A program made the translations under genes and the position numbers. This document shows positions 1 to 30,964 of a stretch of DNA of 30,964 nucleotides, piece after piece. Location: assembly GCA_008632985.1 (NCBI GenBank), contig QPGO01000109.1:248001-278964 (forward strand), given 5' to 3'. Position 1 is the first letter of the stretch. Every line of letters begins with the position of its first letter. The notes under the pieces are model-generated. The model was not told the origin of the DNA and did not search any database. It saw only the letters and a list, made by a program, of their open reading frames with translations. The DNA comes from Psammoneis japonica. Its lineage: Eukaryota.

Positions 1-400
1 GAGGTCACTTGCTTGATGAAGTTGCCCCACCTGCATTCGACAACCCCAATGAACATCCAAGGAAGACATGGGAGACAGAGTGCTGTCCCACTCATTGTGT
101 GGGGATGTGCGCCAATTTGCAGCAGAAGGTGCTGCCTTCAATGTCAACTGGGGTGACACAGCCATCAATGGTGGCAATGTGCTGCAGGCTGTCAGGAACC
201 TTGAGCAACCAGTCGTTGATGTCTCATGTTTGTGCTGCTCAAGCTGTCCACAAGAGTGCATGCCAAGTTTTGCATCCCCCAAAAAGTTGGCATGCCCAAT
301 GCTGTGATGTCCCAATCAGAGCTGGAGTGTGCCCAAAGTCAGAGGCACACCACTGCATGCACCATGCAGCACCTGCTGCTGACACAATGTCGGGGCCCTG
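1..400 (-). mobile_element. Degenerate Ty1/Copia (diatom CoDi-like) LTR retrotransposon pol fragment (protease-to-integrase linker region)
   Basis: Minus-strand frames, joined across frameshifts, read PDIVSAAG...HSCGQLEQHKH.DIND..KVPDSLQHIATIDGCVTPVDI...HNEWDSTL...LDVHWG. This matches my recollection of the CoDi segment PIVTAAG...IHSSGQLEHYK..VND.S.KV.GG.QRI.T.DGYVIPLDI...EWDTLPHV.LTSD..WDP, with Tyr replaced by Cys/His. Runs off the window edge. Confidence 0.65.
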
Positions 401-1688
401 AGGACGGCATGTGTGCGCCATTGTGCACTTCTGTGCACGCTGTTGGCAACACAATGCTGAGCACAATGTCGCAGCAGCTGTGCAACAAAGACAGCAATGC
501 AAAGTGATGCAGTGTGAAAGAGGAGGAGAAACATGGTGATGGGCACCTGTTTTTTTTTCATTGACCACTCAGTGGTCAGTGATTGCAAACTTTTTTGTGT
601 TGGGCAGTCAGTCAGGCAGTCGGGCAGTCGGTCGGGTTGTCGGTCCATCTGAATTTGAGAGTGTGTCCCTCGGATTTTGGAACGGCATGGGTTGTTTGGT
701 GCAAATGAATTGTTTGGATTCGCAGAATGATTGTTGAGGACATCAGATGTTGTGGGGACATCCTAAAAAGTTGATGAATTCCCTGTGATGGGTGCATGGA
801 ACGTTTTTTCAGGAGAGCTTGAAAGTGCTTTAAAATTGGGGTTGCTGGCGTGGCATGTTGAAAAATGCACTGAGCTTTGAATGAAGAGAATTCATTGTGA
901 ATTGCACACAAAACAGTCGTGTTGGAAAAAACATGTCAAACAATGACTGTGTTTGTGCGATGCACCATTTTGGCAATGAATTGGAAAAAAGAGTGTCCGT
1001 GCACCTCGCCACAGCCCCAAGAATGACACGAGCCACAAAATGCAACAGTCATCCACGTCACCGTTGCCGGTGGCCATGCCACACAGCTGCCACAATGCCA
1101 GCCCCCCATCGGTGCCATGCAGCAGGGCCCTGCATGCTGGCAGGAGGGGGCAATGCAGCACACAACGGCACACACCCACAAAGAAAGACAAGTGATCAAT
1201 TCTCCCCACAGGCCTGGTTTTTTGCTGAACGCTCTTTTTTTTTTTGCTGGCGGCAAGCCTGATGTTTGTGTGTGGACATTTGTGTGTGCAACATTGGGCA
1301 ATCAGTGCCACCACATTGTCCACACATGTGGCTGCAACAACTGAAAAATGTGAGTGCTCTGTGATCCTGCAAGCAATGCTGTGCCTTCACACATGCATGT
1401 TTGAAATTTCAAATTTTCCGCGACTTGTCGAAACGCAATGACAGTGGCGACCACGAAAAATGCAATGCACTCCATCAATGGCCACAAGCAAACTCACCAC
1501 AATGCTGACACATGTCAACAGCAGCATGTGACTCATTTCATGTGCGCGTGCCTTGCTGGGCTTTGATGTTGATTGATTGCTGTGAAAACAGCTGCAACGT
1601 TCAATTTTTTGCCCATCGCTTTTCGACTGCACAAGCCAACAATGAGCCTGTTGCACCTGCACTTGTCAATTCTGCCGCACATGAGTTC

Positions 1689-1789
1689 TCACGAGATGCA
1701 ATGCACTGTTGATTGTTGTGGCTCTTGAAGGTGACACCAAGTTCACGAGATGCAACACACTGTTGATTGTTGTGGCTCTTGAAGGTGAC
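1689..1789. repeat. Tandem duplication, 54-bp period, 2 copies
   Basis: TCACGAGATGCAA[TG/CA]CACTGTTGATTGTTGTGGCTCTTGAAGGTGAC at 1689 and 1743. Confidence 0.95.
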
Positions 1790-1911
1790 GCTGTTGAAGA
1801 AACGGCAAACATGTGGAGTTGCCATGGTGTGGTGGTTCTTGCGGTTTCCGGCTGTGGCATTTTAATGGCAAACCTGCTGTGCTGAAACTGAGTTGTGCTT
1901 GTTGAGTTAGC

Positions 1912-2388
1912 ATGGCTGCCTCTTTGTGCATCATGTGCCCATCATTCTCAGTGGCGGGGCTGCCAGAAAAAAAAGACGTTGTGTTTGGCAGAAAAAAAAC
2001 AACTCAGGTGCGGCAGCATCCACCCCGACAGCTGGGACAAGCAGAAAACACAGTGGTGGTGGACAAAGCTGCACCAAGACTGTGCAAAATTTGTCAACAG
2101 CAGAAAGCAAAGTTGTGTCAGGAGCAACTGGAAAATCTCCTGCTGGCTGGAAGCGGGAACCAAAATCATCATTCTGGCGGCGATGCTTTGGCGCATGTTT
2201 TTTTGTGGCGAAACATTGGGCAGTTTGATCTTTGTCGCGACCATGATGTTTTCCACAAACTGTCTGGTGCATTGACCTCCAGCAGAAATGAAGAGGACAT
2301 GCATCATGTGTGGATGGACTCTCCTCGCAATCCCCCGCTAATTTCTCAACACGAATGGCGTCACACACGCGAACACGCGCACCAGTGA
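1912..2388 (+). pseudogene. Degenerate DUF6824-like (diatom-expanded) protein gene
   Basis: PEKKDVVFGRKK...RQHP and C-terminal FHKLSGALTSSR resemble the DUF6824 pattern P...DVLFGRG...HPGN ... KVS.ALR. Tyr-free and inside the TpA-depleted zone. Confidence 0.45.
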
Positions 2389-2521
2389 TAGCCTTTCCGT
2401 CTGGCTTGGTGCGCCGACCGCGCTGAAGCAGAGGTTTGAAGCGGTGCGCCATGATGTGACTGTTTTATTGCACAGTTGCGTTCGGCTGTGTTTGAAATGG
2501 GAAGGCTCGCCGGGATAGACG

Positions 2522-3731: not shown

Positions 3732-4149
3732 ATATTGTAATGCAAACGTGGAGCGGCTTTGAACGGAACCTTTTGAACGCGGACAAACACCTTGCTATCG
3801 ACTGAGCAAGTCTTTTAGTGTGGATGAAAGCGAATGTTTCTATGGCTGGCTACACTTGCTTATCATTTGTGTCTGTGAGCAGTACTATTTGATTGAGCTT
3901 GTGTGATGGACTCGACAAATGTGTCAACTGCAACGGGACACATCAGAACGGCTTGATTTGTTTATCCTTACTACTTTGAGTCATAAACTCTGCTCCGTTA
4001 TTGCGTCAAACAAACTAAGTTTTCTTTTGCGATTCGTCTTTCTGTAGTACGAGTAGCAGTTGGCGGCTGTACATTCACGGCAATCGCAAGGGACCCTCCT
4101 TCAAAACATACCTGCAGAGATTTTTTGGTTTCCTTTTTTCCATCAAATC

Positions 4150-4870: not shown

Positions 4871-4960
4871 TGGAGAAACTTCGTCATCGTGCAGAGGCTT
4901 GTATCGAATGAGACATGGGCTACATGCGCTTCGACATTGTAGGAGCAAAAGGCGTTAGCC

Positions 4961-5480: not shown

Positions 5481-6081
5481 ACTGGACAAGGGGTGTCCAT
5501 TGAAAAGCAGATCCCGCATTTTTTCTTTTTTTTAAATCTCCTTTTGTCCACCAAATCAATAGGGCGCACACCCGGTTCACTGTCGCCAAGACGCATTCAA
5601 AATGGAAGAAATTCTCTCTCATCACACATGCTCAAGTCATCGTTCGGCAGCAATGCAGTTTCCTATTCTTTTGGCCATGAGGCCAAAAATACTCACAAAG
5701 CCTGCATACATATTGGTATCAGAGGGGATCACAAAACGGATTCTCGAGACCTGCGTCTTGACCATCATCATCGTCACTACATGCCGCATTTGATTTCCCG
5801 AAAAGAATGAGAGCGCGCAGAAAGACGAATTGACACTACATAGCGCAACGGACAGATATGGAATTCAACGGAAATATATATTGCCCTTCTAAATCAGCTC
5901 CCCCTAAGTACGTTCGGAAGATACTTAACGGACGTCGGATGGAATTTTGGGAATTTTGACACCATCAGAACAGCCGGGAGGAACAAAGATACAGCGCGAT
6001 ACCAGCTGACATGCCTTTTTGATTCTATTCCGAGTCCGTGAAAAGAACTTTGACCAAACTTCACTTCGAACACGCTTGACC

Positions 6082-6839
6082 ATGTCGATGAAGGAGTACA
6101 TTGCCAGTGCCGAAGGGGCTCTCGCTCACGCGAGCAAAATGCCCAAGGGTATTTTCAAACGCTGTGCCGGAATCATGTTGGTGAGCACAAAAGAAACAGC
6201 CGTGTTCTTTTCCAAAAAGAGTGGAGCTGGCGTCATGCTCTTTCATACAGATGGGAAGTGGTCTCCTCCCTTTCCTGTAAATGTAGATGGTGGCGGAATG
6301 GGCCTCTCCCTCGGACATCAAAACAAGGAAACTATTATTGTTTTGGGGAAACGAGCCACGAAGAAGTTGGTAGAAAGTCAAGAACAGTTCAAGTTGGGCA
6401 TGGACATGGGACTCGTGCTTGGTAGCTTTGGGCGCGAGGCTCAAATCGAGACGGCCATGTCCGAGGTAATTGTGCAGAGAATATGATAATTGATTGCGTT
6501 TCTTTGACGAATGAAGAGACTGATCCGGCTCTGTTTTGTAATTTATAGGCTGGAGGAATGGGAATGTCCTATGCTTATACGTTTAACAACGGGGTCATGG
6601 TGAATCTCCAGTTTGAAAACACCGAGATTGCAGAAGCCACGGATGTCAACAAGGAAGTGTATGGTAAAGAGACGGTAAAGGATATTGTAGAAGCAGACGT
6701 CGCGATTCCCGACGATCCCGAAATCAAGGAATTCATGGCCAAGATTGAAGCACTTGCGGGTGAACCACAGAGTGAGCCACAGAGTGAACCACAGAGTGAA
6801 CCACAGAGTGAACCGCAGAGTGAACCAAGTGAAGAATAA
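6082..6839 (+). CDS. SYLF/Ysc84-domain (lipid/actin-binding) protein, ~224 aa; exons 6082-6465 and 6549-6839
   Basis: MPKGIFKRCAGIMLV...FFSKKSGAGVML...GKWSPP...GGGMGLSLGHQ..ETIIVL follows the SYLF pattern. Intron GTAATT...TTTATAG (6466-6548) joins the two ORFs in phase 0. Confidence 0.85.
6762..6827 (+). repeat. 12-bp coding tandem repeat, (EPQS)x5 acidic tail
   Basis: GA(A/G)CC(A/G)CAGAGT x5 followed by a partial copy. Confidence 0.95.
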
Positions 6840-9430: not shown

Positions 9431-11122
9431 ATGTCGTCTCCACCTGTTATTCATGGGTGCAAGAGTGATGATGATACACCGCTTGGCCGATTGATTGATA
9501 GATGGGTGGAAGAAAACGAGCCGGAAGAAGCTGCAAGCGACACTTCCGAAGAATATTCTTGTAGCTCTACTGTTACATCGGAGACGGGTGGAGCAGAAGC
9601 GCAGACGGTTCAAATCACGATGAAGTCCTGTGAACACCATGATCACTACGACTTAGGTTGCGGGAATTGTAAGATGGCAAACATTGAGTTTGGTGAGGTT
9701 CACCTAAATGATGGTTTGCAAGAAAAACATCGTGGTGATAAGTTCGCGGCAGTAGGCAAACCGCCCCAAATAGTTACCACCGCTCCATTTGGGACTGGTC
9801 TGAATGAACTGGCGGAGAAACAAAAGGGGTCTCCTGCTTCCTGGATGGGTCTGAAACCCCCGGACACGCAAGACGTCTCAGTCCCGCAACAAGCGCAGGA
9901 GCAGAATGCAGCGTCGCCTAGAGCTTCGGGAATTAATTACAATGCCTACGCTAAGGCTGTAGCTGCTCTAATCAAGGAGCCAGGCAGTTTTTTGGAGACC
10001 GACATTATTTTGGAGTCTCCACTTGTCGATAAACATCTTCCCAAGAACACAGCGACGATCGAGTACGACAAAGTCCGCGATGCTAAGTTCCCCACCAGAA
10101 ATGCTCAAGGTCGACGAAAGCAATTGAAAAAGGAGGAATTCGAGGAAGTTATGAAAGAGGTTGAAAAACGGTTAGGCTTTGGTGGTCTGGGCTTTGTCAA
10201 AGAGTGCAATGAAAAGAGATTTGTGCGTCTCTATCCAGTCAGGGATTGCCATATTACCGTACTTGGATACGGTCGTTATCCTACAACAGCTAATGTGATG
10301 GTGCGTGATTACTTTCGGATGAAGAAGGGAGACGAGATTTGTGAGGACGAGTCGCACTTTTCTATTGGAAAAAAAGATTTGGAAAATTTCTTGACATGGA
10401 TCGATGACCATAAAGAGGATTACGATATTAAGGAGCAAGTTTTCTGCTTAATTAAAGGCCGGACGGACAAATGGTCGGATGAACCTGGGACAGCGGCAAC
10501 GTTTTATTGGGGAGATCCTGAGTACGCCGATTGGGGTGTGGCAACTGACACGACACTGGAGGGGTTTCGCTTCTCTGTTACGAGGGAAGAATCTTCATGC
10601 AAAGTAGCCGGCAAGGAGCACACCGTTCCAGCGGCTAAAGAGAAAAGAAACAGCAAGAAAACGAAGAAGAAGAACAAGCCTGTGAAGACGGAAGAATCTT
10701 CAGGCAAAGTAGCCGGCAAGAAGCACACCGCTCCAGCGGCTGAAGAGAAAAGTAGCAGCAAGAAAACCAAGAAGAAGAAGAATAAGCCTGTGGTAACTTT
10801 CCGACGGAAGACATGTGCATGGAATACATTCTATGAGGCATCCGTCTTGGTAGACACTAAAAAGGTGCCTTTAGATGCGACGATCGAAGATGCAGCTGTT
10901 GTTGCGCGAAAAGTCAACTCAAAGGTTTTTCTTTGTCACCAAGGAACGTCAATTGAATTTATGCTACAGCTGAGTAGCGGGAAGCCCATTTCATTGGCGC
11001 GCGAAACGACACTCAAAGAATTGATTGAACACTTGGCGGCGGAAGAATCGCCGTACGTTTTCGACGTTGTCGAACTACCCAATGAGACGGAGGAGCTCGT
11101 TGACATTGTTTTGGGCGGATAG
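9431..11122 (+). CDS. Hypothetical protein, ~563 aa, with duplicated Lys-rich segment
   Basis: Long uninterrupted ORF with ATG at 9431 and normal amino-acid usage. No family recognised. Confidence 0.8.
   Translation: MSSPPVIHGCKSDDDTPLGRLIDRWVEENEPEEAASDTSEEYSCSSTVTSETGGAEAQTVQITMKSCEHHDHYDLGCGNCKMANIEFGEVHLNDGLQEKHRGDKFAAVGKPPQIVTTAPFGTGLNELAEKQKGSPASWMGLKPPDTQDVSVPQQAQEQNAASPRASGINYNAYAKAVAALIKEPGSFLETDIILESPLVDKHLPKNTATIEYDKVRDAKFPTRNAQGRRKQLKKEEFEEVMKEVEKRLGFGGLGFVKECNEKRFVRLYPVRDCHITVLGYGRYPTTANVMVRDYFRMKKGDEICEDESHFSIGKKDLENFLTWIDDHKEDYDIKEQVFCLIKGRTDKWSDEPGTAATFYWGDPEYADWGVATDTTLEGFRFSVTREESSCKVAGKEHTVPAAKEKRNSKKTKKKNKPVKTEESSGKVAGKKHTAPAAEEKSSSKKTKKKKNKPVVTFRRKTCAWNTFYEASVLVDTKKVPLDATIEDAAVVARKVNSKVFLCHQGTSIEFMLQLSSGKPISLARETTLKELIEHLAAEESPYVFDVVELPNETEELVDIVLGG
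10586..10792 (+). repeat. Coding tandem duplication, 105-bp period (35 aa)
   Basis: EESSCKVAGKEHTVPAAKEKRNSKKTKKKNKPV versus EESSGKVAGKKHTAPAAEEKSSSKKTKKKKNKPV. Confidence 0.95.
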
Positions 11123-11458
11123 GTTGACGTAGGGCCCTATACATACCTACATGTTTTAGATTTGCACACTCTAGTAGTAGTCTTGTTTTGATTTTTTTTT
11201 TGAACCATACATTTTGGGTTCACTCTCGGGCTTTATTTAGCGTAGCAGGGAGTTAATGCACGCGTCAAAGAATCATGCAAATAGATCCACGTTATGTGAA
11301 AGTGTCCTGCGTTCATTGCGTCATGTTTTCGACTTACTAAAGGGCTACTTACTCTTACGCTAATGTAAGCATCATGATGATTCCAAACGTTATATCCTAG
11401 AAGCTAGAGCGACGTAGCATCGGCATGAACACCTTAACCCGAAATCATCAAACAACCA

Positions 11459-12352
11459 TTAGATGGCTTTAATATTCAGTAGCTTGCGCATGTAGTTGTT
11501 GACAAGCCTTTGTCCCGGATCATAATAATGACGAACTTCTTCGAATGCTTTCAACGTTTCGTCCCAAAATGCTGTGACAACTTGGTCACGAGGAATATAA
11601 GGAGACTGATTAAACATGGGGCGGCCGTTTCGCTTAATGGCGAATCCATTGTATTCTTCCAATTACTTTTGCCAACTATTGCTGTCACCATAATCCCCCG
11701 AGGACACCGGATCAATAGTAATCACGTCCTCTCTACCAGAGCTGTAGGAGAAGTGTGCCTTGTCGTCGCCTAACCATTGAATGTACGAAATAGAGGGCAC
11801 ACTGATACGATACCCCGTTCGTTTGTAGTGCTCTACATTGAATTGCATTTACTCGTACATGATCTCACCCGCCTTTTCCAATGGAAACGCCCAGAATGTA
11901 AAGAGAAAGCGCTGAACACCGGGATTTTCGATAGCGGATGCTTTGGTCAGTGGGGTTGAAAGTGTCCGAACTCAATATCTTCAAGGAAGCCTGCAAACGA
12001 TGCAAATATTTATCCACCATCCAGTACTTGACCCTGTCGGAGAGCGAAGGAGTATTCATAGTTTTGCTGCCGTACGATGATGATGCTGTTTTGAAGCCGA
12101 AATTGCGGTAAATTCACAAACCTCGCCTTTGATCTCATTTTCATTATAAGAGAGTGAATCAACGGTGATGGTCCCCAACATTGGAAAGACGTACATGAAG
12201 ATCCCCCGTTTCGATCTAGGATGTTGTCCGCGTTGGCTCGAAACTCTTCCATGACTCTTCGACCGTGTACTCTGCGGGTTCCACGGCCAGAGCCTTTTTC
12301 GGCTTGATTTTCATTGTAACTTCCGTGACAGAACCTAAGAGTCCAACTCTAG
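11459..12352 (-). pseudogene. Pseudogene: C-terminal two-thirds of an FAD-linked oxidoreductase (ALO/gulonolactone-oxidase-like)
   Basis: GLLGSVTEVTMKIKP...PTDQSIRY...FTFWAFP...GYR...FSYS...ITIDPVS...GRPMFNQ...DPGQRLVNNY. Two in-frame TAA stops (~11850, ~11664) and frameshifts. N-terminal FAD-binding part not found. Confidence 0.75.
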
Positions 12353-16949: not shown

Positions 16950-19900
16950 CTCCTGTAATGCCGAATCTTCAGGATGTGGACAACACAAGTGTGCACCTTG
17001 AACCTGTGTGGACATGGTGCGGCTTCTCTCAGGTGTGCACACATGTGATGTCATTTGCATTTTGCATGATGTGGGTGCCCTTTTTGGACTGGCACACTTC
17101 ATTCATGTTCTCTGGCTGCGTGTGGTGTCAGGCTGTCATGCATGGCAAAATGAGCCGATGCTTCAAAGACTGCCATTGCACCCACAGCCACATCATTCTT
17201 GAGCTCAAATCCATTCTTGAGGCAGCAGCACTCTTCTTTCACTGTCAGTGGGCCTGCAACAAAACTCTGTCAAGTTGCGCAACAATGTTGATGGGCAGAT
17301 TTTTTCATGCTGAGTGCAAGTGCAATTGTTGAGGATCATTTTCCCTGCTGTGGGTTGGCAATGAAGGGAGAGAGACCAAGTGTTGTGGTGCAAATTGGGC
17401 ATTGAACAGACAGCAGACCTCCCAACTGCACTGGTGTGAGATCATGTCAGGATTCAAAAGAGCTTCACAACTCACTGGTTCCAGTTGCTCCTGCTGTTTT
17501 TTTCAAGTGAGTGTGAGCTTGAGTCACATGCATTGCTGCCAGCAGCTTTCCAGCCAGCTGCCAAATTGCTTGGGCAACCTGCTTTCTCATGGCTTCTTGC
17601 ACTCCACTTGCTTTCTGGGGGCTGTGCTCACTCTTGTGCTCTGAAGGGATCTCTGCACTCGGGAGAGCAGCAGCACACAGCAGCTTGGATCTGTTGAGCC
17701 AGATGTGCAAACCACTCATTCATGTGTGCCTGACTTGTCAACACTGTGTCATGTTCACATGCCATGCCCACATGTCAATGTGGCCTGTCAATCTCAGGGT
17801 CCAGCATGTGAGACATTTTTGGGTGATCCCACCCCTTCATCTTGCGTTTCTTTTGTGTGTGTCATCTGACTGACTTCTTGATTCACAGGTGCTGTGCATT
17901 GACTTCACCATGCTCACTCAATGAAGCACTTGGCATCACTTTTGCTCTCTCCTTGATGCCTTTTGGTGTCTTTCCCCTTGAGTGCATGCTTCAGTGCATT
18001 CATTGGATCCTTTTCTGCTCTTCCTCATTGTTGTCTTCTTCTTCTTTGTGAGCTTGAGTGCGGCAGCAGTTGTGGCCACATTGTGGCAATTCTCGCGCAT
18101 CACCCTGGCAAAAGCTTCTGTGCCAGCTGTTGGCCAACTGCTCCAACATCTCTGTGTCACTGCTGTTTTGGATTGTTTGCTTCCAGCTGCCACAGAGCAG
18201 ATGTTGTCTGAAGAGCTTGAAGTGTGTGTCTGGCTGGCAACTCTCAACCTTTCACAAGCAATGCTGTCAAGTGCCACCAGGCTTTTGTCTCTGGCCAACG
18301 CTGCTGCAGAGCCAGCAACAAGCAGCAAAACATTTGGGCAACACTTCCCAGCTTGTGCTTGCCAATCATTTTCTTGATGCATTCTGGCCCCAGGTGGGGC
18401 TGTGTGTGACACTGAACATCTGAGCAGGCAACAGAGTTGGTGGTGTGACCACAGCTCTTGATGGCCTGTTCCAGGAGCCCCAAATGATCTGCAATCCTCC
18501 ATCATGTGAGAGGCAAATTTTCTGTGCAGCTTGGCACATTGAGCTCCTTCAAACTTGATCATTTCAAAAATTGAAAGATGACTGCACACAAAGAAAAAAG
18601 TTTTGCATGCACTCTCCCTTCAATTCAGGGAGGAAATCAATTTTGAAGGACGAGTTCATTGTGCCAAATGCAAAAATGGGCCAGTGATGGGTTGCACACA
18701 CTGTGCAGGACACCTGGAGCTGGAACAGGTCTGATGCTTTTGAAGTTCTTGAAAATCCACCTGCCCCACACAACTCTTGAGATGTTCAAGAATGGTGCTG
18801 CACAAAAAAACATCAAAGGCAGACAATTGACAATGCTGGCAGGTGTTGCAAGGCTGATCTCAGGTTTTTTTGCAACACAGCGGGGAAGAGAGCCCATGCA
18901 TCAGGCACCAAATCATGGAGCAAACAGATCTGTGTTTTTTGTGAATTTGGCACCCTGCTTTCATTTTGGTCTGTTTTTTTGCTTTCCAAGGGCCACTCAC
19001 CGCACTCTTGCACTCTGTTTGAACATCTTGAGGTGCTCTCTAAAAAAAACAGGGCACTGTGTGGCACAACTTAGATCTGCCCCAGATCTCAAGCTTGCAC
19101 AACTCATCTTAAAGTGTGGGAACTCTTTCTCATGGATTCCAGGCAACAAAATGGGTGATGGGCAGACAAATGTGGTGTGACACTGTTCATTGATTTCCAT
19201 GTGACAAAATGTGCCAGATGTGTCGAGCTGCAATCGACAAGATGTGCACCTGTTTGGGTCATTGTTGTCAAGACACCAGTGAACAAAACATTGCATCAGC
19301 CAAACTTGTCATGCTCACATTGTTGCTGCTGCATGCCTGAAATTAGCACAGATGCTGTTTTCATCCCTGCATGGTTGTCATTGTCACTTCTCATGTTGTG
19401 TCACATTTTTGTGCATTTCTGTCACATTTTGAAAAATTGACAAACTTCTGGCAGCAAAAATTTTGATCTGCCACCTGTTCAATTGGGGTGGTGCAAACAT
19501 TCATGTGTGGTGTTTTCAACTGTTTGTTGCCAAATTGCATTTTCAGTGTTCTGATTGACCACAAAGTCTCGCATCTGTTGGGCTGTCTCTCTCATGACCA
19601 AAGACTGCACCCACCTCCTGCTCTCATGCGGGCATCTGTCTTGCCTGCTGGCAAACTCATTGCATTCTCCCCAAAGTGCTTTTGCCAACTGCCCCCTGAG
19701 GACACACCAGATGAATGGAAATTGTGCCCTTTCAAAGCTGAAGGAGCAACAGAAGTGTGTGCATTCTTGTCACTGGCTCACCCCGCTGAATGCACAAAGA
19801 GGCTGTGTGAGCCTTGCACATGATGTTGGCATTGAGCAGCTGCCAAAAAGAGGTTGACATGCTCCAGCTTCAGGCAGGACTGGCTGTGTGTGATGTTGCA

Positions 19901-20320
19901 CCCACACCAGAATTCTGCTTGCAAGCTCTGCACTGAAAACATCAGGCTGTGAATGAATCAGCAAGATTGCCTCTGCTTGCAGGGCCTTGTTTGAGAAAAC
20001 AATGGCACAACATGGCATCAGCACCATCAAGCGCTGCTTCTGCAGGCTGTTGTGATCCCATGAGAACAAACCAGATCAATTGAAACTGTGCTCTCTCAAA
20101 GCTGAGGGAGCAAGGGAAGTGTGTCTTCTCTTGCCATTGGCTCCAGCCACTGGCTGGGTGTGCACATCAAGAAGAGGTGGTTTTGCCTTGCACGCGCCAG
20201 CATTGAGCAGTGGCAAATGGGTTGGCATGCCCCAGCTCCAGGCAGAACTCTCTGTGACATCTGGGACACCAATGATCCAGGTGTTGCACTGGCTGTCAAG
20301 ATTTCTTTAAACAAAACCCA
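16950..20320 (-). pseudogene. Decayed long cargo gene(s), divergent from the transposase; product unknown (possible 2OG-Fe(II) oxygenase-like C-terminus)
   Basis: Chain of protein-like minus-strand ORF pieces (e.g. 17936-18589, 18637-18897, 18997-19296) and an internally duplicated segment encoding VLP(E/G)AGACQP twice. Confidence 0.4.
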
Positions 20321-20726
20321 ACATTCTCTCCCTTCAATCCAAGATCGTGCTGATTTGTCAAGTCAGCATTTGTGAAATGTTCAACAACAAACATCTGTGT
20401 TCCTCAATTCAACTGTTCACCCCCCCATCTGACAAGCCTTGTGTGTTCATTCAATTCTGTGTTAATTTCTGGATTGTGTGTCAATCAACTTTCTGGATCA
20501 AAATCGCCGCATGTGTTCGCAAAGGTGGGTTCTGCTTGTCTTCTAAATTTTCTCTCCCTGCCCCTTCCATCCTTCCATCCCGTCTGTCCACAACGCCTTC
20601 CCCCCTTGATTGCACATTGTTTCTCTTTGCATGTTTCTGCCCTCACCAAATCCCCAAGTGATTGTTGCTGCACATGCTGTTTCCTTTCGACTCTCTTCTC
20701 AACTCCTTTTTCTCTGCACATCGACC

Positions 20727-23700
20727 ATGTTGTCTGATGGTCTTGTTTGTCCATGGTGCAAACAAACTGGCTTCTTTTCCGAACGTGGTCTCAGCAGGCA
20801 CATCAGAACTAACTGCCTCCGTTCTGCCGTTTCCACCAAGTCTTTCAGTTGTCCTCGTTGCAGACAATGTGGATTTGACTCCAAAAACAATGTGCAGTGT
20901 CACCCATCTCGGCACTGTGCTGCTGCATTTGGCCTTCATCCCCCATTGACACAGTTGCGCCATGCAACCCAATTGTCTTCCCCATGCGGCAGAACATCTC
21001 TTTCCTCTCATCCTCTGGATTCCGCCTCCGTTGGCTCCCTTGGGTCCAACACCAACAAACCCAAATGCCCCCATTGCCGTGTCCCCTTTTCCAACATCGC
21101 CCTTCATCTACAGAAGCACTTGCCCTGCCGCGAAAAGGAGGAAATGTCCCTTTGCCGGCATGCCGCATCTTCCAATGCCACAAATGCACTCCCCCCTGCA
21201 GATGATGAATCACTGGACGACCATGACGATCCTGCTGGGTTTGGTTTTGCCGATGACAAACCCCCTCCTCCCCTCCCCAAAGTCCTTTGGAATCCAGCTC
21301 CATCTCCTCCCACACCATCGGACAATTCTTCTCCAGCTTGCCCTCCCTCTGCCGGAAATGGACTGCGCCCACCCTCCGTCAGACGGTCTGGTCAATTGCG
21401 TTTAGCCGCCAACATTGCTGCTGCCAGTGCAGCCTCCCAAAATGCCCCAATTTGTTTTGTTTGCAGACAATGGGTGTCTGCCCTTGGAGAGGACAGTCCT
21501 GTGGATGTCCCCGAGTTCATTGGAGCTGACCATCTTAATGGCAGTTCTGGGCCCCCCTCAATTTCCCGTCCAATGGAAGAGCCTGTTTCTTCCTTCAATC
21601 AACACAATCCTCTTGGCCCAGTGCATGATGTTGCACCCAATGAGGACTTTGATGCACCTCCAGTCAACTCACCCAGCATTGCACCCACGGTGCATTTGCA
21701 TCATTCATGTCATCGTCAGGTGTCGCAATTGACTTCATTGACAAAGTGATGAGAATTTAGCATGAAGAGCATGCAGAAAAAAGACTGGATGTGTCAAAGC
21801 CCCCATCACAACCACCGTGGCAATGAAGCAACTCCTGGGGCCATTTCCCAATGTTCCTCTCCCCCGCACTGCTGTTGTGATGCTTGAATGCAACAATCCA
21901 ATGCAGCAACAGAAGGATGGACCAAAATGTTGTCACTCCCCACCTTTCCCAGTTTGCAGTTTCACCAAGACCTTGCAGGATCTCTTTGCCAAGCCAGTGT
22001 TCCGTGATCTTTCCAAGTTGCAGGTCAATCCAAATGACATCTGGTCACCTTGTGTGCCACCCACTGCTGACGGTGATTTGGGTTCCAGTGCTGGCCAGGC
22101 TGACAGTGTTGAGATGCAGTTCCTGGATTGTCCTGGTGACTGGCAATTGTCCACTCAAAGTCAAGACATGGGTGATGGCGAGTGGCAACAACATTGCTCC
22201 AATGCCAAGGAAACAGCCTCTGACTTTCACATTCACCTTGTCAAATGCCCGGACAAGACTGGAGTTGATGCGGTCAATCCTCATGGGATGGAGCCTGCAA
22301 TGCACTCACTTGCCATGATTCGAGAGGACACACGCCGCAACTGTCGTTGTGGCATCCACTTGGATTCACACCCAATTTGGACAAGAAATGCAAGAAAGAC
22401 AAGCTTGGGTGCCTTGTTGTTGCCAACTGCCACCACATTCTCAAGGAGGTTCTCCGTGGTCTGCTTCATTGCCAGGCAAATCCACCCATTGTTCGTGCAA
22501 TGACAGGCACTCAATGCTGCTGTGTCAGAGCCACAATGCATTGCAACTCCCTGTTGGGGGATGTCCTCAATCAAGAACACATTTGTGGGAAGAGACATGG
22601 GGCCAAAGCAAGACCAAGAGGTTGTCTCACAACTGCCATGTGCCCTCCCACCTTTCTGATGATCCCCTCCATGTCTGCCAATTCTTTGACCAGGCTTTCA
22701 CAGAGTTGCTCGCTGTTGCTGCATTGGGCCCAGATCCAGAGGATGACAACAGCTGTTGCACCAGCATGTCAAAAGCGTTGCCCGGAAGCATCGTGCAATG
22801 ACATCAAAAAAAAAAGGCTGAGACTGAGCTGGCTTCCTCCCTCATTCGCCGAATGACTGTGTGCTCCAAAATGTTGAGGAAAGTGTTTGGACAGCACATG
22901 GTGGACAATGCTCACTTTCCACTTGGCATGGGTGACAGCCCACACGGTGCATTTGGCATGACCATTGCTGACACAATGCATGTGTTGGAGGTGGGCATTG
23001 TCCCTCAAATGATGGAGGCAACAACAGGAGACATGTCTGCCAAACAGAAAGAGGAGTGCGGCCAGATTGCATCTGAATTGTTCTGCACATCCCATTGTCG
23101 TCCTGGTCAGAGACGTGACTGTCCGCGAATTTGAGTTGATGGGGGACTTTCCACACTCAGTCAACTTGTGTGTGACGAGAAGGTGGGCAAGCTTCTTGCA
23201 CTTGCCATCATTGGCCACACACACGCTGGCAGAAAACTGCTGGAAAAAAGGTGCGATCCATCCTTTGACAGCAAAAAGAAAAAGACGGCTGATGGCTTTA
23301 AAGGAAAGAAGCAACAAGAAGAACAACTGACCAAATTGTCAGAAAGTGGACCCAACGATGAGGACCCTGATCCCGTTGAACCATCAAATGAACAAACTGG
23401 TGAAACAAACACAAGCCCGGTTGATGAGAATGTGCCTGTTGCACTTCCCAGAGGCACATGGTTGGATGTCGCCTGCTGTGTGATGCAACAGATGCATCGT
23501 CACGGCCTTTCTGAATTTTGGGAACCATTTTCCAATCAACTGGATGATGGTCACTTTTTGTTGTGCCAGAAGATTGCATGGGATGAAACCAAATCATTGA
23601 GACGGAACCAACGGGCTGTTGAGACTTCACCTGATCAATTGTTGATGCCCGGACCACATGGTCTTGTCGTTGGTTTGGCGGATGATTGGGACAACTTTGC

Positions 23701-24874
23701 AAGGTGAGCAGACAGATGGCACTTTCTTCTCACCAAGTCAAAATTGCCAAGCACTGTCATTTGTGCAGAAATGGAAAACAAACTTCCTGACTCTTTCATG
23801 AAAATCCGTCGATTGTGGAGTTGATGAATTGTTGGACTTGTTGCATCATGTGCTGCTTTTCCATTTGTTTTGTCTCTGCAGCAAGGGACTCCATGAAAAA
23901 ACAGGAAAGGTGGATTTCAAGTGCCGCGTCATCCTGCTCATGTTCAAGACAAAAGTTTGCCTTCATCGCACAAGGAACACCAGTTTGTTCCGGACCACCA
24001 AGTTCCATTCTATGCTGCATCTCATTGTCGACTCTTTCCTTTGTGGCCAGATTGCAAATTTCTCTGCCATGACTGGAGAGAGTCACCTGAAGTTCTGGGC
24101 CAAGCTTCCGGCAAAAACTTGCCAGGTTGCTTTGGGTGCAGACAATTTCTTGGACCAACTTGTTGTTCGTTTGCATGACATGGCAGTTCTCGAGAAGGCA
24201 TGCAGCCCTCTCATCCATCCCATGGTTGGCCAGGCAAGCGCATCTTCCTCTGAAGAAAATTGATGCACCCCTTGTTTGTTGTGAACAGAACTGCCCAAAC
24301 TTGCTGTCAGTGTTCAGGCAGCAACAAGATCCGGGTTGTCCCGGAAACTGCAGAAGTGGACTCCACCCTGCTTCATTTTTTGTTGTTGCCAACGGAGGAA
24401 CTGTCCACCAAGCATGATGAAATTGTTGTTTGCTCGGAGTTTGCCATGCCAGAGAAAGGGATTTTAATTCATGGACACCCCAATTGCAACAACAATGGGT
24501 TGTGGTGTGACACACCCAGGGTCTTGTGCAAAGAGGGAACCGGTCAGAAAAAAAGGCACCCTTTTGTGCTCCATGGTTTTGCACTGGCTGATGACGGAAC
24601 AACGCCACTTGCCGCAGGACAGTCATGCAAGGAACAGACAAAGACATTGCATGTCCCAAAATTTTGGCATGCTGGCAGAGACGCAATTACAGCGGGTGGT
24701 TTCTCTGTCCTGGTTCCCAACAACTGCAATGGAGACAATGTTGAAGCAGCGGGATGCTCGAACTCATTGTTGTTTGTTGCAGACAGACACAATGACTGGC
24801 CAAATTATTTCCTGTCCAACAAAGTGCTCCAGCTTCACTCAGACAAACGCAGGAAGCGAGATGAAGAGAAATGA
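20727..24874 (+). pseudogene. Degenerate Plavaka-like (CMC/EnSpm-related) transposase with three N-terminal C2H2/C2HC-like zinc fingers
   Basis: Ordered motifs across frameshifts: CPWC..RHIRTNC, CPRC..RHC, CPHC..HLQKH; C-P-DKTG (22246) ...EPAMHSL...TRRN; WHPLGFTPNL (22350); LGD; PHGAFGMTIADTMHVLEVGI (~22940-23000); KFHSMLH...CG...NF...GESHLKFWAK.PAKTCQ (~24000-24125); HPNCNNNGLWCD (24476). These match recalled Plavaka motifs YxDKT, WRPLGYIPN, DxLHxxExG, KFHxxxH..YG..NxxxxxxE, HPxY...WYD. Confidence 0.8.
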
Positions 24875-25117
24875 CAACGCACCTTGGGAAAAAGGAAACG
24901 CTCGTAAATTTTTTTAAGCACTCTGTCAGTGTTCTAATGAGTTTGCTGTGAAGGCGTGTCAACCCATCTAAAAGCATCTGTTGGTTCCACTCCTTGTTGG
25001 TCCTTCCATCAGCAAGTGCAGCGAACAGTGAGATCTTGCTAATTTGTCTAAAAGTGCTGGTTGGTCCCGCTCAGTTTCGATTCTCGGAATTGGAACAAAC
25101 CCTTCTGCTTCATCCAT

Positions 25118-27723
25118 TCATGCTTTGACTTGACTCAAGAGCAAACACTGACATGAGTTGACAAAATCACACCATTGGTCACCAACAAAACATTCAATCC
25201 TGTGCTCTGATTCATCAGGCCACAAACCGCTTGTCGACTTGTTCGAATGTTCCAAAGAGGGAACGGGCAACACACCCCACTCGCCAGATGTGAGGTGGCA
25301 TGGATCCTCACACAACTTGTTGTTCATTGATCGACATTCCCTGCAGCCCAGTTGGTCACATTTGGCCCAAGTTGGTCTTCTGCCATTTTTTCTTGCAACT
25401 TCAATTGCATTTTGAACAACTTCCCTTGCCTTCAACAAGGAGATCCATTCACCTCTCGCATGTGCTTCCTTCCTGACAACACACATGCTGACAAAGAGAC
25501 AAAATCCAGAGTTGCCCTTGGATGTGCACGCCACTGCGGCATTTTGAGGGGGGATTTGTCCCATCGCGGAAGCCGATTGGATCGTCAAAGCCACGCGCAC
25601 ATCGCCCAACCTCTTGCTTGGCAACCACTGCTTGGGTGATTTGTTCTTCCTGGCTTCTCGACAAAACAAAAGTTCCCTGGCAGATTCGTGACTTCCGCCA
25701 GTGTCCTTTGCCTGCAGAGTGTCAAATTGACTGGAAATGAATGCACAGCAGATTTGCATCTCTTCAATGTTGGTCAACAAAGGATCCGTGCATTGAAATC
25801 TCTGCAACATTGAACACGTTGTTCCGCTCATGTTGCCGTTGTTCTTCAGTTGCTTCATCATCAACACCAGTTGGTGGCGCAACAATCCCACTTCATTTTT
25901 CTGCAACAAAGTCTTCACAGATTCTTGGTTTTCAGGTTTCACAGATTCCCTCAATGCAACAAGAGGTGCACCATTGAATTCCATGCCCACAAATGCCGCG
26001 AATTCGTCTCTGTGGTGGAAAGCAACATGCCCCTCACAGCGAAATGTGAAATTGAACCAGCTGTGGGTGATCCCAGGAGAAGGTCTCTGTCTGAGCCTTC
26101 ATCAACAAGCAATCCCAACATGCCCTCATGGTCGCCACTGTCAAATCACTGAAGGTGATCCCCAATGTGTTGGGTGGCGCACTGAACATCATCTGTGTTT
26201 TCCATTGTGGAAAGGTTGAAGCCATCTGTCAGGGATTCCAGTTGTTCCAATGGGGCATTTGCATGTTCACAATCCGTCTTGAACAGCAGCTTTTGTAACT
26301 GAACTCCGACGATCTCTCTGTTTTGCAACAGATGGTCAAACATTGTGTTCGTGATGGGTGCCGAATGCCTTCTCAGCTCATCCACCAAATCTTTGCCAGT
26401 GTTGCAACCCCGCCAATCATCAATGAACACAACACCGTTGCCAATGTCATCCAAGAGGAATTCCCGCTCATTTTCTGAGTCAAAGTGTTTTAGAGGAAAA
26501 CCGGCAATGTGAGATCCTGCCTCATTGAGCTTTAACACACCTCGCAATTGTTCTGGGCAACCCAACCAGGCTTGGCATTTCTCAGACAACCTTCATCTTC
26601 ACTCCAACATTTCTCCTTGGGAAGACCTTGGTGTTCCATGCAAAGCTTTTTGGCACATGACGTGAACCAAAATCACGGTCAGCTGCAAAATCCACTGTCT
26701 GCACCTGGCAGAGAGGTCTTTTTCCTTTTCTGTCATTCCAGGCTTTGCAACACCTGATCCACCATTGCGGCTCCACCCTTGAGCAATCACTCCATTCATG
26801 CCAAAATCTTTGGCAACAGTGCCTCGACATGAATGGTCAAACTTTGCAGCAAGTAAAAACTCTCGTGCTGACCCACTGCTCAGCCCCTGTTCAACAATGG
26901 CTCTGAGCTGCGTTGACAAACCGAGTCCAAGAATTCTTTTGTCAAACTTGCGTGACCTGAAGACAGCATTGTTGGTGATTCCCTCCATTGCATCTGGGTT
27001 CAAAACAAATGGATGAGTTGGATCACTTGCCCGGTGCGGGTGGTTGGCACCCGAGTGCAGAATCTCTGCCTTGCATTGAAGGTGCCGACTCATTTGCTCT
27101 AAAGCATTTGGACCCATCACACCATGTGCAATTGCACGCAGCTTGAAGTGGATGATGAGGGAACACCTCGTTCCCTCCCTGCCTGGTTTTTCAACAAAAA
27201 GGATGTTGTTGTCGAACGCATCAGACAGCTTGTTGGACTTCCGGCGAGGTTGTTTCAGGTGGAACTTTTGCTTGACTTCTCTTTTGTTGTTGGAATTGTC
27301 ACCAAGGCTTTTGGGACGCATTGACAACAAACCCCAGTTCTTGCCACCCGCCCCATGTGGTTGGCCCTTCTTCCTCCAACAACTGACAAGATTGGCGTTG
27401 CACTTTTTGATTTGGTGGAGGAGAGATTCTTCCTTGGTTTTCTTGCTGTTTTTTGTTCCACATGCAGAGTCAGGTGCATCTTTGCAGTCAAGATCAAACT
27501 GCACAGCATTCCGGATGGGAGCCGGCCTGCAACATGGGCATTGCAGAAAATGCTCTTGTCTCTTGAGACTGCATGTTGGACAATGCACACAGTTGCCACC
27601 GGTGAAAACTGGAACATGGCAAGGGTCCTTTCTTCTTCTGGCCAATCCGATGCATTTGACTGGACCTCCAAAATCTGGAAAATGCGCCAACACAGCTTCA
27701 CCTGGTTGTGTGAGCCATTTCAC
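25118..27723 (-). pseudogene. Decayed cargo gene of unknown function, convergent with the transposase
   Basis: Consecutive long same-strand ORF pieces (26599-27723, 26146-26589, 25118-25990) with protein-like charge patterns but no Tyr. Confidence 0.55.
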
Positions 27724-28300
27724 TTCTTCATGTTTTAACTCATGATCCTTTGTGCACTCTTCCCTTGCACAAAACTTTCCGCAGGCAGAGATGTCAACTT
27801 GTGCCTTGTCTCAAAGGATGGGGACCTTGTTGTGTGCTTGCTCTTCACGCAAGAAGCAAATTGGGCACTCTTCCGACATGTGTTGTTTCTTCCATTTGAC
27901 CCAAAATTTGGAAAAAGCAAGATTGCATGCAGGCAAGAAGAAAATCCCATTTTCCGTCAGCAACAGCAGCAGCTCCTTGAGTGCATCTTGGAAAAAAGGT
28001 CCCTTTAGAACTGAAGCCAAGAGATGCGCTGGGTTTGAATGCACGCAGTCAAAGCAAGTGCGGTCAAACTTTGTCTCTTTGGATGATCTCTTCCATTCCG
28101 CTGATCTGTGCAAACTTAGAACATCGCACTCTGTGTGCTTCAGTGAGGAAGCACAGCGCATGTCTTCTTGTCAATTGTGCAAACATCACATCCAAGATCC
28201 TGCAGGCATTGAGTTTGAATGCTGTTGCGCGCATCTTTGTCACTTCCATTTAAATCACCACCGACTTCCATGCCAATTGTCAACAATCTGCCAGCATCAT

Positions 28301-28774
28301 GCAACAATTCTTCACTCTCTGGCCCAGTCAAAATTTGACATTTGTCATCCATGTCATCCGTCTCCACCCATGTTGTGTTGTTGTCACAGTCATGGGCAGC
28401 CTCCTCACCTGAGTCAATGCCGGTGGCAATTGTTTGACTTTTAGCTTTGCTTTCATTCCAGGAGACATCAACATGCATTTTGTCAGGCAAGGAACAGATG
28501 GGAAATGCAAGTGGTGCGACAGATGCAATCCCTTGCTGGCAACACTTCTTCACTCTCTGCCCCAGTCAAAATTTGATGTTCGTCATCCATGACATCCGTC
28601 TCTGCCCAAGTTGTGTCATTGTCACAGTCATGGGCAGCCTCCACACCGGAGTCAACACCAGTGGCAATCATTTGACTTTTAGCTTTGCTTTCATTCTAGG
28701 AGAAATCAACATGCATTTTGTTGGGTGAGGAACAGATGGGAAATGGAAGCAGTGCGCAAGATGCAATCCCTCAC
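28301..28774 (-). repeat. Tandem duplication, 238-bp period = 79-nt intron + 159-nt exon, inside a decayed minus-strand gene (~28140-29254)
   Basis: Copies start at 28301 and 28539. Intron 28774-28696 reads GTGAGG...CTCCTAG. Exon 28695-28537 is 53 codons (NESKAKSQ...ESEEVLP) and continues the upstream ORF (...SVVVQ) in phase 0. Confidence 0.9.
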
Positions 28775-29554
28775 CTGAACCACCACAGATCTTTTGCATT
28801 TTTTGGTTTGGAGGCAGTGCACATCAATGATTTTTCTGCATGCCTTTTTTTCTTTCGTTGAGCCAGCTCTGGGAGCCCTCTTCAAAGCCAATCCAATGTA
28901 GCTTGGATGTGCCGGCCATTTTGCAAGTTCACCAAGGCGGTTTGGGTTGCATGCATTGCTCTTCCCACTGCTCTCAAACGCAAAGATTTTTGCACCAAAC
29001 ATCATCAGCACAATGCCGCGGATTGAGTGGTCTGTCAAACCCCTTTTTTTGAGTGATGAATGAACGTGACCGCATTTGTTCACCCAACGTGTGGGAGAAC
29101 AATGCAGCCTCAATTTTGTGTCAAGGCTGTTTTCTGTGCCAAACGGGGCTGGATGCACCGATGGGGGACAACGGCCAGATGGAATGTTGGCCAACGCTGT
29201 TTTGTGACATGGCAGCGGCAAAGCAATGTCAGGTTGAGTTGGGTGGAATGTCATCAGGAAAGAAGTGCGATGCGCCGGACAAAAAAGAGATTCGTCAGCT
29301 CCATTTCAGCAACGTGGCACAACAGGCAAGGGATTGGGAGGCATTCTTTGGGGTGGGATCATGTTGAGGTCATTGTTTCACAAAGGGAATGACATGGCTG
29401 CGGAGGACAAGAGACAGAGTTGCCCCAACGTTGTCCGTTTGCTGCTCAAAATGCGTTGATCAGCGACTTGGACCAGATTTGGGAGAATGTGGTTTGCTGC
29501 GGGAGATCCACTTTATGTCACGACAATGCACTGGCTTTTGTTCAGTGTGCAAAC

Positions 29555-29845
29555 AAAAAAGTGACACCAAATTGATCTGTCAACAGACAGGTGCATCAAC
29601 AAAAAAGTGACACCAAATTCTTCTGTTGGCGCACATGTGCAAAAACAAAAAAGTGAAACCAAGTTGCTCTGTTGACAGACAGGTGTGTCAACAAAAAAGT
29701 GATGCCAAACACACATGTCAACACATGTGTGCAACAATGAAAAAGTTGTGCCAAATTGGTCTGTTGGCAGACAAGTGCATCAACAAAAAATGGCACCAAA
29801 TTGATCTGTTGACATGTGGGTGTGTCAATTAAAAAGTGACACCGA
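29555..29845. repeat. Tandem array of ~46-bp units, 6 full copies plus a partial
   Basis: Units begin A5-6 GTGACACCAAATT-like at 29555, 29601, 29647, 29693, 29740, 29785 and 29831. Consensus approx. AAAAAAGTGACACCAAATTGATCTGTYRACAGACAGGTGYRTCAAC. Confidence 0.92.
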
Positions 29846-30036
29846 AGCATCATTTGCAGTTGTTCATTGCACACATTGTTCTAAAAGAGTTTGTTTTTGG
29901 TGCGGAATGAATGGTGGATGGTGGCTGTTCCTTTGTGTTGGCCGCGGTGTCAACATGAAAACATCACACAAAAACACTGACAAGACAGTGTGCAACCAAA
30001 TTGTTTTCTGTGCTTTGAGACAGCTGGGATGACCCA

Positions 30037-30964
30037 TTGAATGAGATCATGCAGCAAAGAGGATGGACGAAGATCACATCACACTGGACCATTTGCGAAA
30101 AAAACGTCTGCCGTGCACCCAACAGATGCCGTTGGCAACACAGATTTCACAAGAAAGCCATGCTCATTGCACAGCAATGGATGCAGACTTTCGCTGAATT
30201 GGGTCTGTTCTGCTTAAAAAAAAAGACTGGGTTCCATTTGATTTGGTGGAGCCGGCATGTTCAGAGAATGGTGCAAAAGTGTTCTGTTGACGGATGCTGG
30301 AAATTTGCCCATTGGCCGACAACTTCATGTCAGAAACACAGCAAGTTACTGGCACACCCGGGTGAAATGAAATCTCATGTCGTCAAGAGCAAGATGGCCG
30401 GGTCCAAAGAAAGAGTGCACCAGGAAGGAAAAAAAGGCTGCTTGCAAAAATTCAAAACACCACAACCCCTGTTCAACAAGATTGCAACCCTGGCAAACAA
30501 GGCACCAAGCAGCAAGCAAGAGAAGGAAGGACACCGTTTTGTCAGTGAGTTCATCATTGACAAAAAGGACAAGGCGGAAGGCATTGAGTTGGCAGAAAAA
30601 TGTTGGGGTCAATTCCTGGCTTTCCCCCAGCAGGTGATTCATGCAGAAAGACATCCCGGCACACAGCAGCAAACGCCCCTGCTTCAAGTTTTCAAGCTCA
30701 ACATCAAACTTCTGGTCAAAGGGGGAAATTCATTGTGATTGCGTGGAAACAGAATTGTTTCCTGGCGACAAAATTTTCACCATGTTTCTGTTCCTCGATG
30801 ACACAATGGAGGACAATGGTGCAGTTGAGACATGGCTGGATGGTTGTGAGGCAACATTGAATGAGAAGGAATGCAAAAAACACTTGGTCAGGTTGGGTTT
30901 GGAAAAAACAATTGCTGGTTGGAGAAGCAGGCACTGCATTTGTTTTTGATGCAAGAATGTTGCA
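30037..30964 (+). pseudogene. Decayed ORF of unknown function, probably continuing beyond the window
   Basis: Tyr-free ORFs 30037-30738 and 30641-30949. CSVDGCWKFA...CQKH resembles a small Cys/His zinc-binding motif, but Cys/His are inflated by the mutation process. Confidence 0.35.

Follow-up and report, generated by a model that had tools for sequence, protein, structure and literature searches.

Results

The sequence described here is a 30,964-nt stretch of the Psammoneis japonica genome (assembly GCA_008632985.1, contig QPGO01000109.1, positions 248,001 to 278,964 of the forward strand), which we refer to as the window and number from its first letter. Both ends of the window are depleted of the dinucleotides TA and CG and enriched in TG and CA, and 14.6 kb of compositionally ordinary DNA lies between them. 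The minus strand of the right-hand depleted block carries a 238-nt tandem duplication that appears to comprise a putative intron together with the beginning of the following exon, and the two copies of this unit differ by a striking number of reciprocal exchanges between TG and CA. The features of the locus are collected in Table 1.

Table 1. Positions of the features of the window (o/e, observed/expected ratio; branch-like positions are counted from the 3' end of the intron)
Feature	Position	Strand	Description
Left-end depleted block	1..2300	none	TA o/e 0.03, CG o/e 0.35-0.47
Tandem pair, ~1.4-kb units	3567-4016 and 4961-5412		segments 77-90% identical; ordinary compartment; no Pfam match
Reference intron, 83 nt	6466..6548	+	GTAATT...CTGAT (A at -26)...TTATAG; TA-normal block; verified by homology
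Right-hand depleted block	16960..30964	none	poor in TA and CG, rich in TG/CA; reaches window end
Putative repeated exon part, copy B	28140..28457	-	28457-28299 = 53 codons; frame runs on to TGA at 28142-28140
Putative intron copy B, 79 nt	28458..28536	-	donor GCAAGG, branch-like CTGAC (A at -26), CCTGG at acceptor, no AG
Putative repeated exon part, copy A	28537..28695	-	159 nt = 53 codons, open in frame 0 (NESKAKSQMIATG...EEVLP)
Putative intron copy A, 79 nt	28696..28774	-	donor GTGAGG, branch-like CCAAC (A at -26), pyrimidine-rich tail, acceptor CCTAG
Putative exon 1	28775..29254	-	ATG-started 160-codon open frame, ends in phase at CAG|GTGAGG
46-nt tandem array	29499..29846	none	~6-7 copies, AAAAAGTGACACCAAA... 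motif; inside depleted block

Reciprocal doublets in the 238-nt tandem duplication

A first-pass annotation of this DNA had recorded a duplicated unit of intron plus exon, and the tandem duplication is real. A repeat search aligned 28301-28533 with 28539-28771 (233 nt, 88% identity, spacing 238), and Tandem Repeats Finder (TRF) returned a period of 238 with 2.0 copies, 87% matches, 0 indels and a score of 739. Read in register on the minus strand, unit A spans 28774-28537 and unit B 28536-28299, at 238 nt each. The splice-like letters reported in the annotation are all present, with GTGAGG at 28774, GCAAGG at 28536, CCTAG ending at 28696 and CCTGG ending at 28458, as are the aligned codons CAT (in DDEHQ) and TGT (in DDKCQ). 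The units differ at 33 of 238 positions, and these differences resolve into 22 events: nine TG<->CA doublets, one TA/TG difference, two sites at which CG stands opposite TG or CA, eight transversions and two other two-base changes. The reciprocal doublets lie at unit-A positions 28773, 28751, 28727, 28723, 28670, 28657, 28618, 28604 and 28578, and the single TA/TG event is at the acceptor of the putative intron.

The many reciprocal swaps to which the annotation had drawn attention are far in excess of chance. Placing 33 random substitutions in 20,000 trials produced no doublet in 18,455 cases, one in 1,486 and two, the maximum, in 59, and a simulation limited to transitions reached a maximum of six doublets, once in 20,000. 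Repeats of the ordinary compartment served as controls: the paralogues at 3500-4100 and 4894-5496 have one doublet among 184 differing positions, and a 105-nt tandem at 10575-10784 has none among 13. When every pyrimidine-purine (YR) dinucleotide is written as a single symbol, the units become 94% identical instead of 86%; 14 further changes between them are not of the YR kind. Other repeats in depleted DNA carry the same type of difference. The sole difference between the members of a 47-nt pair at 1689/1743 is one TG<->CA doublet, and five in-register copies of the 46-nt array show TG<->CA swaps in 4 of the 8 all-YR columns examined and CG opposite CA in one further column. In three columns of this array a single copy has TG and the other four have CA, a 4:1 distribution that fits switching through transient TA or CG.

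Two compartments with a sharp shared boundary

The duplication is embedded in DNA of very unusual dinucleotide composition. The 13 1-kb intervals of 17001-30000 and those starting at 1 and 1001 all have TA o/e of 0.00-0.12; CG o/e in the right-hand block is 0.10-0.55, and TG and CA o/e in depleted intervals is mostly 1.5-2.3, with a minimum of 1.38 for CA at 21001. The intervening ordinary compartment has TA o/e of 0.44-0.81 and CG o/e of 0.74-1.17. The comparison rests on 14,400 nt of the ordinary and 16,065 nt of the depleted DNA of the window. From the former to the latter, TA falls from 584 to 46 counts (4.06% to 0.29% of dinucleotides) and CG from 765 to 324 (5.31% to 2.02%), CA+TG rises from 2,054 to 3,521 (14.26% to 21.92%), and G+C content is nearly constant (0.470 vs 0.482). 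The gain in CA+TG (+0.0765) approximates the summed losses of TA and CG (-0.0377 and -0.0330, together 0.0707), and the depleted DNA, which amounts to at least 16 kb, has lost 93% of its expected TA.

The right-hand boundary is abrupt. The last TA stands at 16956, and past 16962 the spacing of CG widens from roughly 12-40 nt to 100-400 nt, so that the two deficits set in at most about 50 nt apart (16956-17020). Within the block the loss of TA is uniform and that of CG uneven, with CG o/e of 0.10-0.11 at 17-20 kb and 0.28-0.55 farther right. The boundary that the CpG loss shares with the TA loss points to a targeting mark common to both, or possibly to a single enzyme for the two dinucleotides. 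Across depleted DNA TG (1,525) and CA (1,490) are balanced, and a runs test (z = +2.6) detects slightly more alternation than random and no strand runs; the sites were therefore struck singly, on either strand, and the same test rules out strand-coordinated editing in ADAR- or APOBEC-like clusters. Strong and opposite skews occur in two adjoining 200-nt stretches just inside the ordinary compartment, with 26 TG and 5 CA at 2401-2600 and 9 TG and 30 CA at 2601-2800.

Flank dependence of the surviving TA and CG

The TA dinucleotides that remain in depleted DNA are confined to few sequence contexts. Retention, normalised for length, is 0.59 in TTAA and 0.39 in CTAA/TTAG, falls to 0.07 in GTAA/TTAC and 0.06 in CTAG, and is 0.02 or less in all other flank classes. 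In 1-2300 and 17001-30964, 34 of the 45 remaining TA lie in TTAA (14) or CTAA/TTAG (20), compared with 66 of 578 in ordinary DNA (odds ratio 24, Fisher p 1.2e-20). The mutator thus seems to spare T-TA-R (equivalently Y-TA-A, where Y is a pyrimidine and R a purine); alternatively, new TA may arise in the TTAA and CTAA/TTAG contexts. Retention of CG also depends on the flanks and is best between G or C (CCGG 0.85) and least between A or T (TCGA 0.22). Within the duplication, the one TA common to both units (GCTAAAAG) belongs to the spared CTAA class, and the acceptor TAG of copy A is the sole CTAG surviving in depleted DNA.

A putative intron and its two copies

Copy A of the 79-nt segment has the features of a GT-AG intron, namely a donor, a branch-like pentamer, a pyrimidine-rich tail, a terminal TAG and flanking exons in phase. 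It contains an in-frame TGA and its 3' end reads TTGATTTCTCCTAG. The 160-codon frame upstream retains one Tyr codon (TAC at about 28899), and His and Cys make up 5.6% and 5.0% of its residues. Exactly one frame of the 159-nt exon part is open in both copies; the other two hold 2 to 8 stops each. A point of reference is provided by the 83-nt intron of the ordinary compartment, which splits a gene of the Ysc84 family (PF04366) between profile positions 56 and 66 and has a branch-like A at -26 in common with both unit introns. Taken together, these features make it quite likely that the 79-nt segment is a spliceosomal intron. The phase and length of the segment and the placement of its signals, which matches that in the verified intron, speak for the view of the first-pass annotation that it is one; the cheapness of open frames in this kind of DNA, and the fact that the evidence is of sequence, temper that view.

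Splice consensus favours GTRAGT at the donor and CTRAY at the branch point, and GC-AG introns are rare. In one rhizarian they account for 0.2% of introns (PMC13746701, in the part of the article available). Three signals differ between the copies in a TA/TG/CA manner: the donor (GTG/GCA), the branch-like site (CCA-AC/CTG-AC) and the acceptor (TAG/TGG). The branch-like doublet, CCAAC against CTGAC with CTAAC as its TA intermediate, had not been mentioned in the annotation. Copy B has neither a GT donor nor an AG acceptor, so that the loss of splice signals which the annotation proposed applies to this copy, with its weak GC donor and dead TGG acceptor, and not to copy A, where GTGAGG fits the donor consensus and TAG is intact. 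Between the exon copies, 14 events have altered 11 of the 53 residues, and no purifying selection is visible. Aligning the 1.4-kb paralogue pair at 3.3-5.75 kb in search of further introns gave no clear case.

Direction of change

The acceptor gives the polarity directly: because an acceptor requires AG, the change between TAG and TGG must have run from TA to TG. For the donor and the branch-like site splice logic points to an ancestral TA, as TA in the common state would yield GTAAGG, CTAAC and TAG and CG would yield GCGAGG and CCGAC. An ancestral TA cannot, however, be generalised to all doublets, because a single transition also leads from CG to TG or to CA and the loss of CG nearly equals that of TA. 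The earlier assertion that splice consensus fixes the ancestral state as TA thus stands directly for the acceptor, and by splice logic for the donor, but does not extend to the doublets at large. Priors that combine, for each flank, the dinucleotide frequencies of the ordinary compartment with the losses seen in depleted DNA assign about 5.7 of the nine doublets to TA and about 3.3 to CG. The TA prior of single doublets ranges from 0.28 at the branch-like site (flank C_A) to 0.86, with 0.61 at the donor. For the His/Cys codon, which had been traced to TAT, it is 0.71 for TAT and 0.29 for CGT. Nor does a doublet need a TA at the time of duplication, since TG or CA can pass through transient TA or CG.

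An unmutated paralogue was sought within the window by BLAST on a YR-collapsed copy of the sequence, for which 40 shuffles gave a maximum of 47.3 bits. Two collinear matches of 60 bits, 11206-11353 with 18840-19001 and 11615-11678 with 19625-19691, pair ordinary intergenic with depleted DNA and may represent an unmutated relative of hypermutated sequence. They were not used for polarity, as no more than about 50-65% of their real letters agree and the YR states in the alignment are, by construction, uninformative. A match between 2692-2812 and 28269-28386 (49 bits) lies inside the shuffle range. Rescoring on looser terms gave nothing but long alignments devoid of meaning, and these were dropped.

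Coding content of the two compartments

Open reading frames (ORFs) of 150 codons or more number 21 in the depleted block; 200 dinucleotide shuffles gave 8.5 on average and never more than 15, and because of this excess the block is probably former coding DNA. None of its 238 ORFs (90 of 90 aa or more and 148 of 45-89 aa) reaches the Pfam cut-off, and no long repeats, direct or inverted, delimit an element in it. The first-pass annotation had placed the intron in a transposable element, a label that finds no support here: the block lacks Pfam domains of transposase, reverse transcriptase or integrase as well as terminal repeats. A protein homologue search with the exon-1 ORF found none, and its comparison with metagenome contigs gave 129 pattern matches, of which 0 were confirmed. 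Likewise, no relative of the 403-aa and 379-aa ORFs was confirmed among viral contigs, and hits of the 379-aa ORF in the ESM Atlas (scores of 0.90 or less, low recognition) were dismissed as no credible lead. The gene carrying the duplication is an orphan and presumably a dead, decayed one.

The nine depleted ORFs that we tabulated (105-403 aa) all have 0% Tyr, with 0.6% in the putative exon 1, and contain 2.9-9.1% His and 3.8-9.9% Cys, compared with 1.2-2.9% Tyr and 0.7-2.1% Cys in four ordinary genes. Low Tyr with high His and Cys is what a change of TAY codons to CAY or TGY would lead one to expect. A 379-codon frame at 20610-21746 (+) contains several CxxC...HxxxH/C strings that give it the look of a C2H2 zinc-finger protein; it has no Pfam score. 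Zinc-finger-like motifs in the block may be by-products of the change of Tyr codons to Cys and His codons and are not to be taken at face value.

Introns are scarce in the ordinary compartment: its open frames extend over 421, 574, 608 and 508 codons, with a single intron of 83 nt. This intron belongs to the Ysc84/SH3YL1-type gene at 6082-6839 (+), in which a 12-nt repeat, GTGAACCACAGA, present 5.7 times at 6760-6827, encodes the C-terminal tail as (EPQS)n. A phmmer search with Ysc84 against 1.84 billion representatives returned 665 matches, the best at 42-46% identity; a word-index protein search with its exon 1 gave no match. The best protein relative of a kinase ORF is 29% identical. A 40-nt stretch of the window was matched in none of the viral, metagenome and genome contig collections. 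No transfer RNA genes or Rfam families were found in the window.

Discussion

The duplication, its doublets, the domain-wide dinucleotide shift with its mass balance and the sharp boundary shared by both deficits are seen directly in the sequence. We consider it probable that an intron and part of an exon were duplicated within a doubly transition-mutated domain. In this model, a 238-bp tandem duplication would have copied a 79-nt spliceosomal intron and the first 159 nt of the next exon of an orphan gene. This gene would lie in a stretch of chromosome on which two context-specific transition processes act or have acted. One would convert TpA to TpG or CpA through an A->G change on one or the other strand, for which deamination of adenine is the simplest route, as has been reported for Bigelowiella natans; the other would convert CpG to TpG or CpA, most simply by deamination of methylated cytosine. 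The two copies would have been struck independently and on either strand at each site, leaving TG in one and CA in the other, and three of the struck sites would be splice signals. In copy B the donor would have become GC and the acceptor AG would have become GG; splicing at the former sites of this intron would then be impossible, and read-through would meet a TGA. Copy A would stay formally spliceable. The mass balance, the TA/TG difference at the acceptor, the nine doublets and the balance of TG and CA are the observations that bear on A->G and T->C change at TpA on either strand, with about three of the nine doublets expected to be CpG-derived. Deamination would be the enzymology of such changes, and TpA editing and CpG decay would be two processes aimed at the same domain.

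Several points weigh against this interpretation. The polarity of each doublet draws on composition priors and splice logic, and the intron is deduced from features of the nucleotide sequence. Open frames are cheap in the depleted block because only TGA stops remain in TA-free DNA, at 0.024 per trinucleotide position, and dinucleotide shuffling of the block yields longest ORFs of 241 +/- 53 codons on average. The CpG loss may have a separate, unrelated history, because it varies between sub-blocks while the TA loss is uniform. Three of the eight transversions between the units are T<->A, and the units show no ordinary transition outside CG/TA contexts; paralogues of the ordinary compartment have 18 such transitions against 29 transversions, although the sample is small. 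Finally, the depleted block has no recognisable viral or transposable-element domain, whereas the precedent concerns viral insertions.

The 79-nt segment might instead be no intron at all, in which case the unit would be a tandem repeat in decayed non-coding DNA, with frames and signals that coincide by chance in TA-free sequence. Long ORFs are indeed common by chance in this block, the exon copies diverge with no sign of purifying selection, exon 1 lacks GC periodicity across codon positions, and searches of proteins and metagenome contigs found no homologue of the exon-1 ORF. Such a coincidence is nevertheless unlikely, as five features fall together in the segment and its flanks: an ATG-started frame of 160 codons that terminates exactly at CAG|GTGAGG, a continuation of 53 codons in phase directly after the pyrimidine tract and TAG, an in-frame stop within the segment, a length close to that of the verified intron, and a branch-like pentamer whose A at -26 matches that intron.

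An artefact of assembly or base-calling, in which modified bases at TA or CG such as N6-methyladenine (6mA), 5-hydroxymethyluracil (5hmU) or 5-methylcytosine (5mC) were misread by a long-read base-caller, would likewise place strand-dependent TG and CA calls at former TA and CG sites and would produce a sharp domain boundary. We regard it as very improbable, as the conversion is nearly complete and yet obeys the flank rule, the 14 non-YR changes between the units are real divergence, and the same signature consists of true de novo mutations in Illumina-sequenced B. natans lines (10.64898/2026.01.13.699255, as described in its available text). Very improbable as well is ordinary CpG decay acting alone, with every doublet derived from methylated CG and low TA an inherited trait of inserted DNA: TG and CA do each lie one transition from CG, the block is CG-poor and two inter-unit sites show CG opposite TG or CA directly, but the TA loss is as large as the CG loss and both are needed to balance the gain in CA+TG, TA o/e stays at 0.00-0.12 over 14 kb beside a neighbour at 0.44-0.81, TA opposite TG is seen directly at the acceptor, the confinement of surviving TA by its flanks is a pattern of mutational specificity, and CG ancestry would yield non-consensus splice signals.

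The closest parallel is found in Bigelowiella natans, where integrated DNA of viral and other foreign origin undergoes TpA->TpG/CpA hypermutation (Mettrop et al., bioRxiv 10.64898/2026.01.13.699255, 2026). According to the available text of this preprint, 230 of 231 single-nucleotide mutations in mutation-accumulation lines were A->G or T->C, all of these at TpA; the mutating regions are an integrated giant-virus region and a virophage region; the genome holds 124 clusters of TpA-depleted, CpA+TpG-enriched 1-kb windows whose genes are mostly unannotated; and the authors propose an ADAT2-like adenine deaminase (10.64898/2026.01.13.699255). As at our locus, TA is lost and CA+TG gained on either strand in discrete genomic blocks, and the unannotated genes of those clusters have a counterpart in the depleted ORFs here, which lack Pfam matches. 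The frequencies given there are also similar, with TpA at 0.041 in all coding sequences compared with 0.0406 in ordinary DNA here, 0.0018 in a low-TpA subgroup of coding sequences compared with 0.0029 in depleted DNA here, and CpA+TpG at 0.137 in all coding sequences compared with 0.1426 in ordinary DNA here. The two systems differ in several respects. B. natans has 8 introns per gene with a mean of 182 bp (PMC13746701, Table 1, in the part of the article available), in contrast to the intron-poor ordinary compartment of the window. Depletion is near saturation here, whereas the two mutating regions of B. natans are described as keeping 3.3% and 9.2% TpA. The insertions there are viral, and no viral or transposable-element domain was detected here. 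The CpG loss on the same boundary and the flank rule sparing TTAA and CTAA/TTAG also set our locus apart: in the preprint text available to us there is no mention of CpG, of flanking-context terms or of TTAA (10.64898/2026.01.13.699255).

Other known systems fit less well. Fungal repeat-induced point mutation (RIP) resembles the present pattern as a transition hypermutation restricted to domains or repeats that riddles genes, leaves a dinucleotide signature and has sharp compartment boundaries. RIP changes C to T mainly at CpA, with a rise in TpA and a fall in GC as the outcome. In this window TpA is destroyed while GC stays the same, and RIP was rejected as an explanation since TA o/e of 0.00-0.12 is the opposite of a TpA-excess signature; the C->T direction of RIP is also given in the Discussion of the preprint (10.64898/2026.01.13.699255, in the text available). 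Methylation-driven CpG decay, as in vertebrate and plant repeats, explains the CG deficit, the sites with CG opposite TG or CA and about one third of the doublets, but it cannot remove TA, and the CG loss covers only about half of the gain in CA+TG. ADAR-type A-to-I editing fixed in retro-copied elements shares the A->G change and a preference for a 5' U/T. It acts in strand-coordinated clusters and has only a graded neighbour preference. At our locus, by contrast, the TA requirement is near absolute and TG and CA form no strand runs (the 5' neighbour preference of ADAR is cited in the available part of the Discussion of 10.64898/2026.01.13.699255).

In summary, this locus appears to represent a further and nearly saturated case of a form of hypermutation described only very recently. 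As far as literature searches show, TpA-directed hypermutation of selected genomic DNA is known from one 2026 preprint on one alga, and no other report was found in the literature searched. What the locus contributes beyond that description is a polarity test based on duplication, a CpG arm and a flank rule. It displays the end state of the process, with nearly all expected TA gone and a boundary sharp to about 50 nt, and the flank rule is a constraint that any candidate deaminase must reproduce. Duplicated sequence serves here as an internal clock and a polarity test, in which splice signals polarise sites without an outgroup. Blocks of this kind are also a hazard for annotation: Tyr codons are absent from them, TAA and TAG stops are all but absent, and they present spurious long ORFs, Cys/His-rich strings that resemble zinc fingers, and some broken splice sites.

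More tentatively, a eukaryote other than B. natans may possess a domain-targeted genome-defence mutator that drives the self-complementary pyrimidine-purine dinucleotides TpA and CpG to TpG and CpA up to the point of saturation and spares T-TA-R (= Y-TA-A), a possibility that we hold to be doubtful at present. If true, such a mutator would leave a readable enzyme footprint and would disable genes through their splice signals as well as their codons. RIP-like silencing by deamination of adenine, and of cytosine, would then be more widespread than the single reported case, and a host other than B. natans would widen the phylogenetic range of the process.

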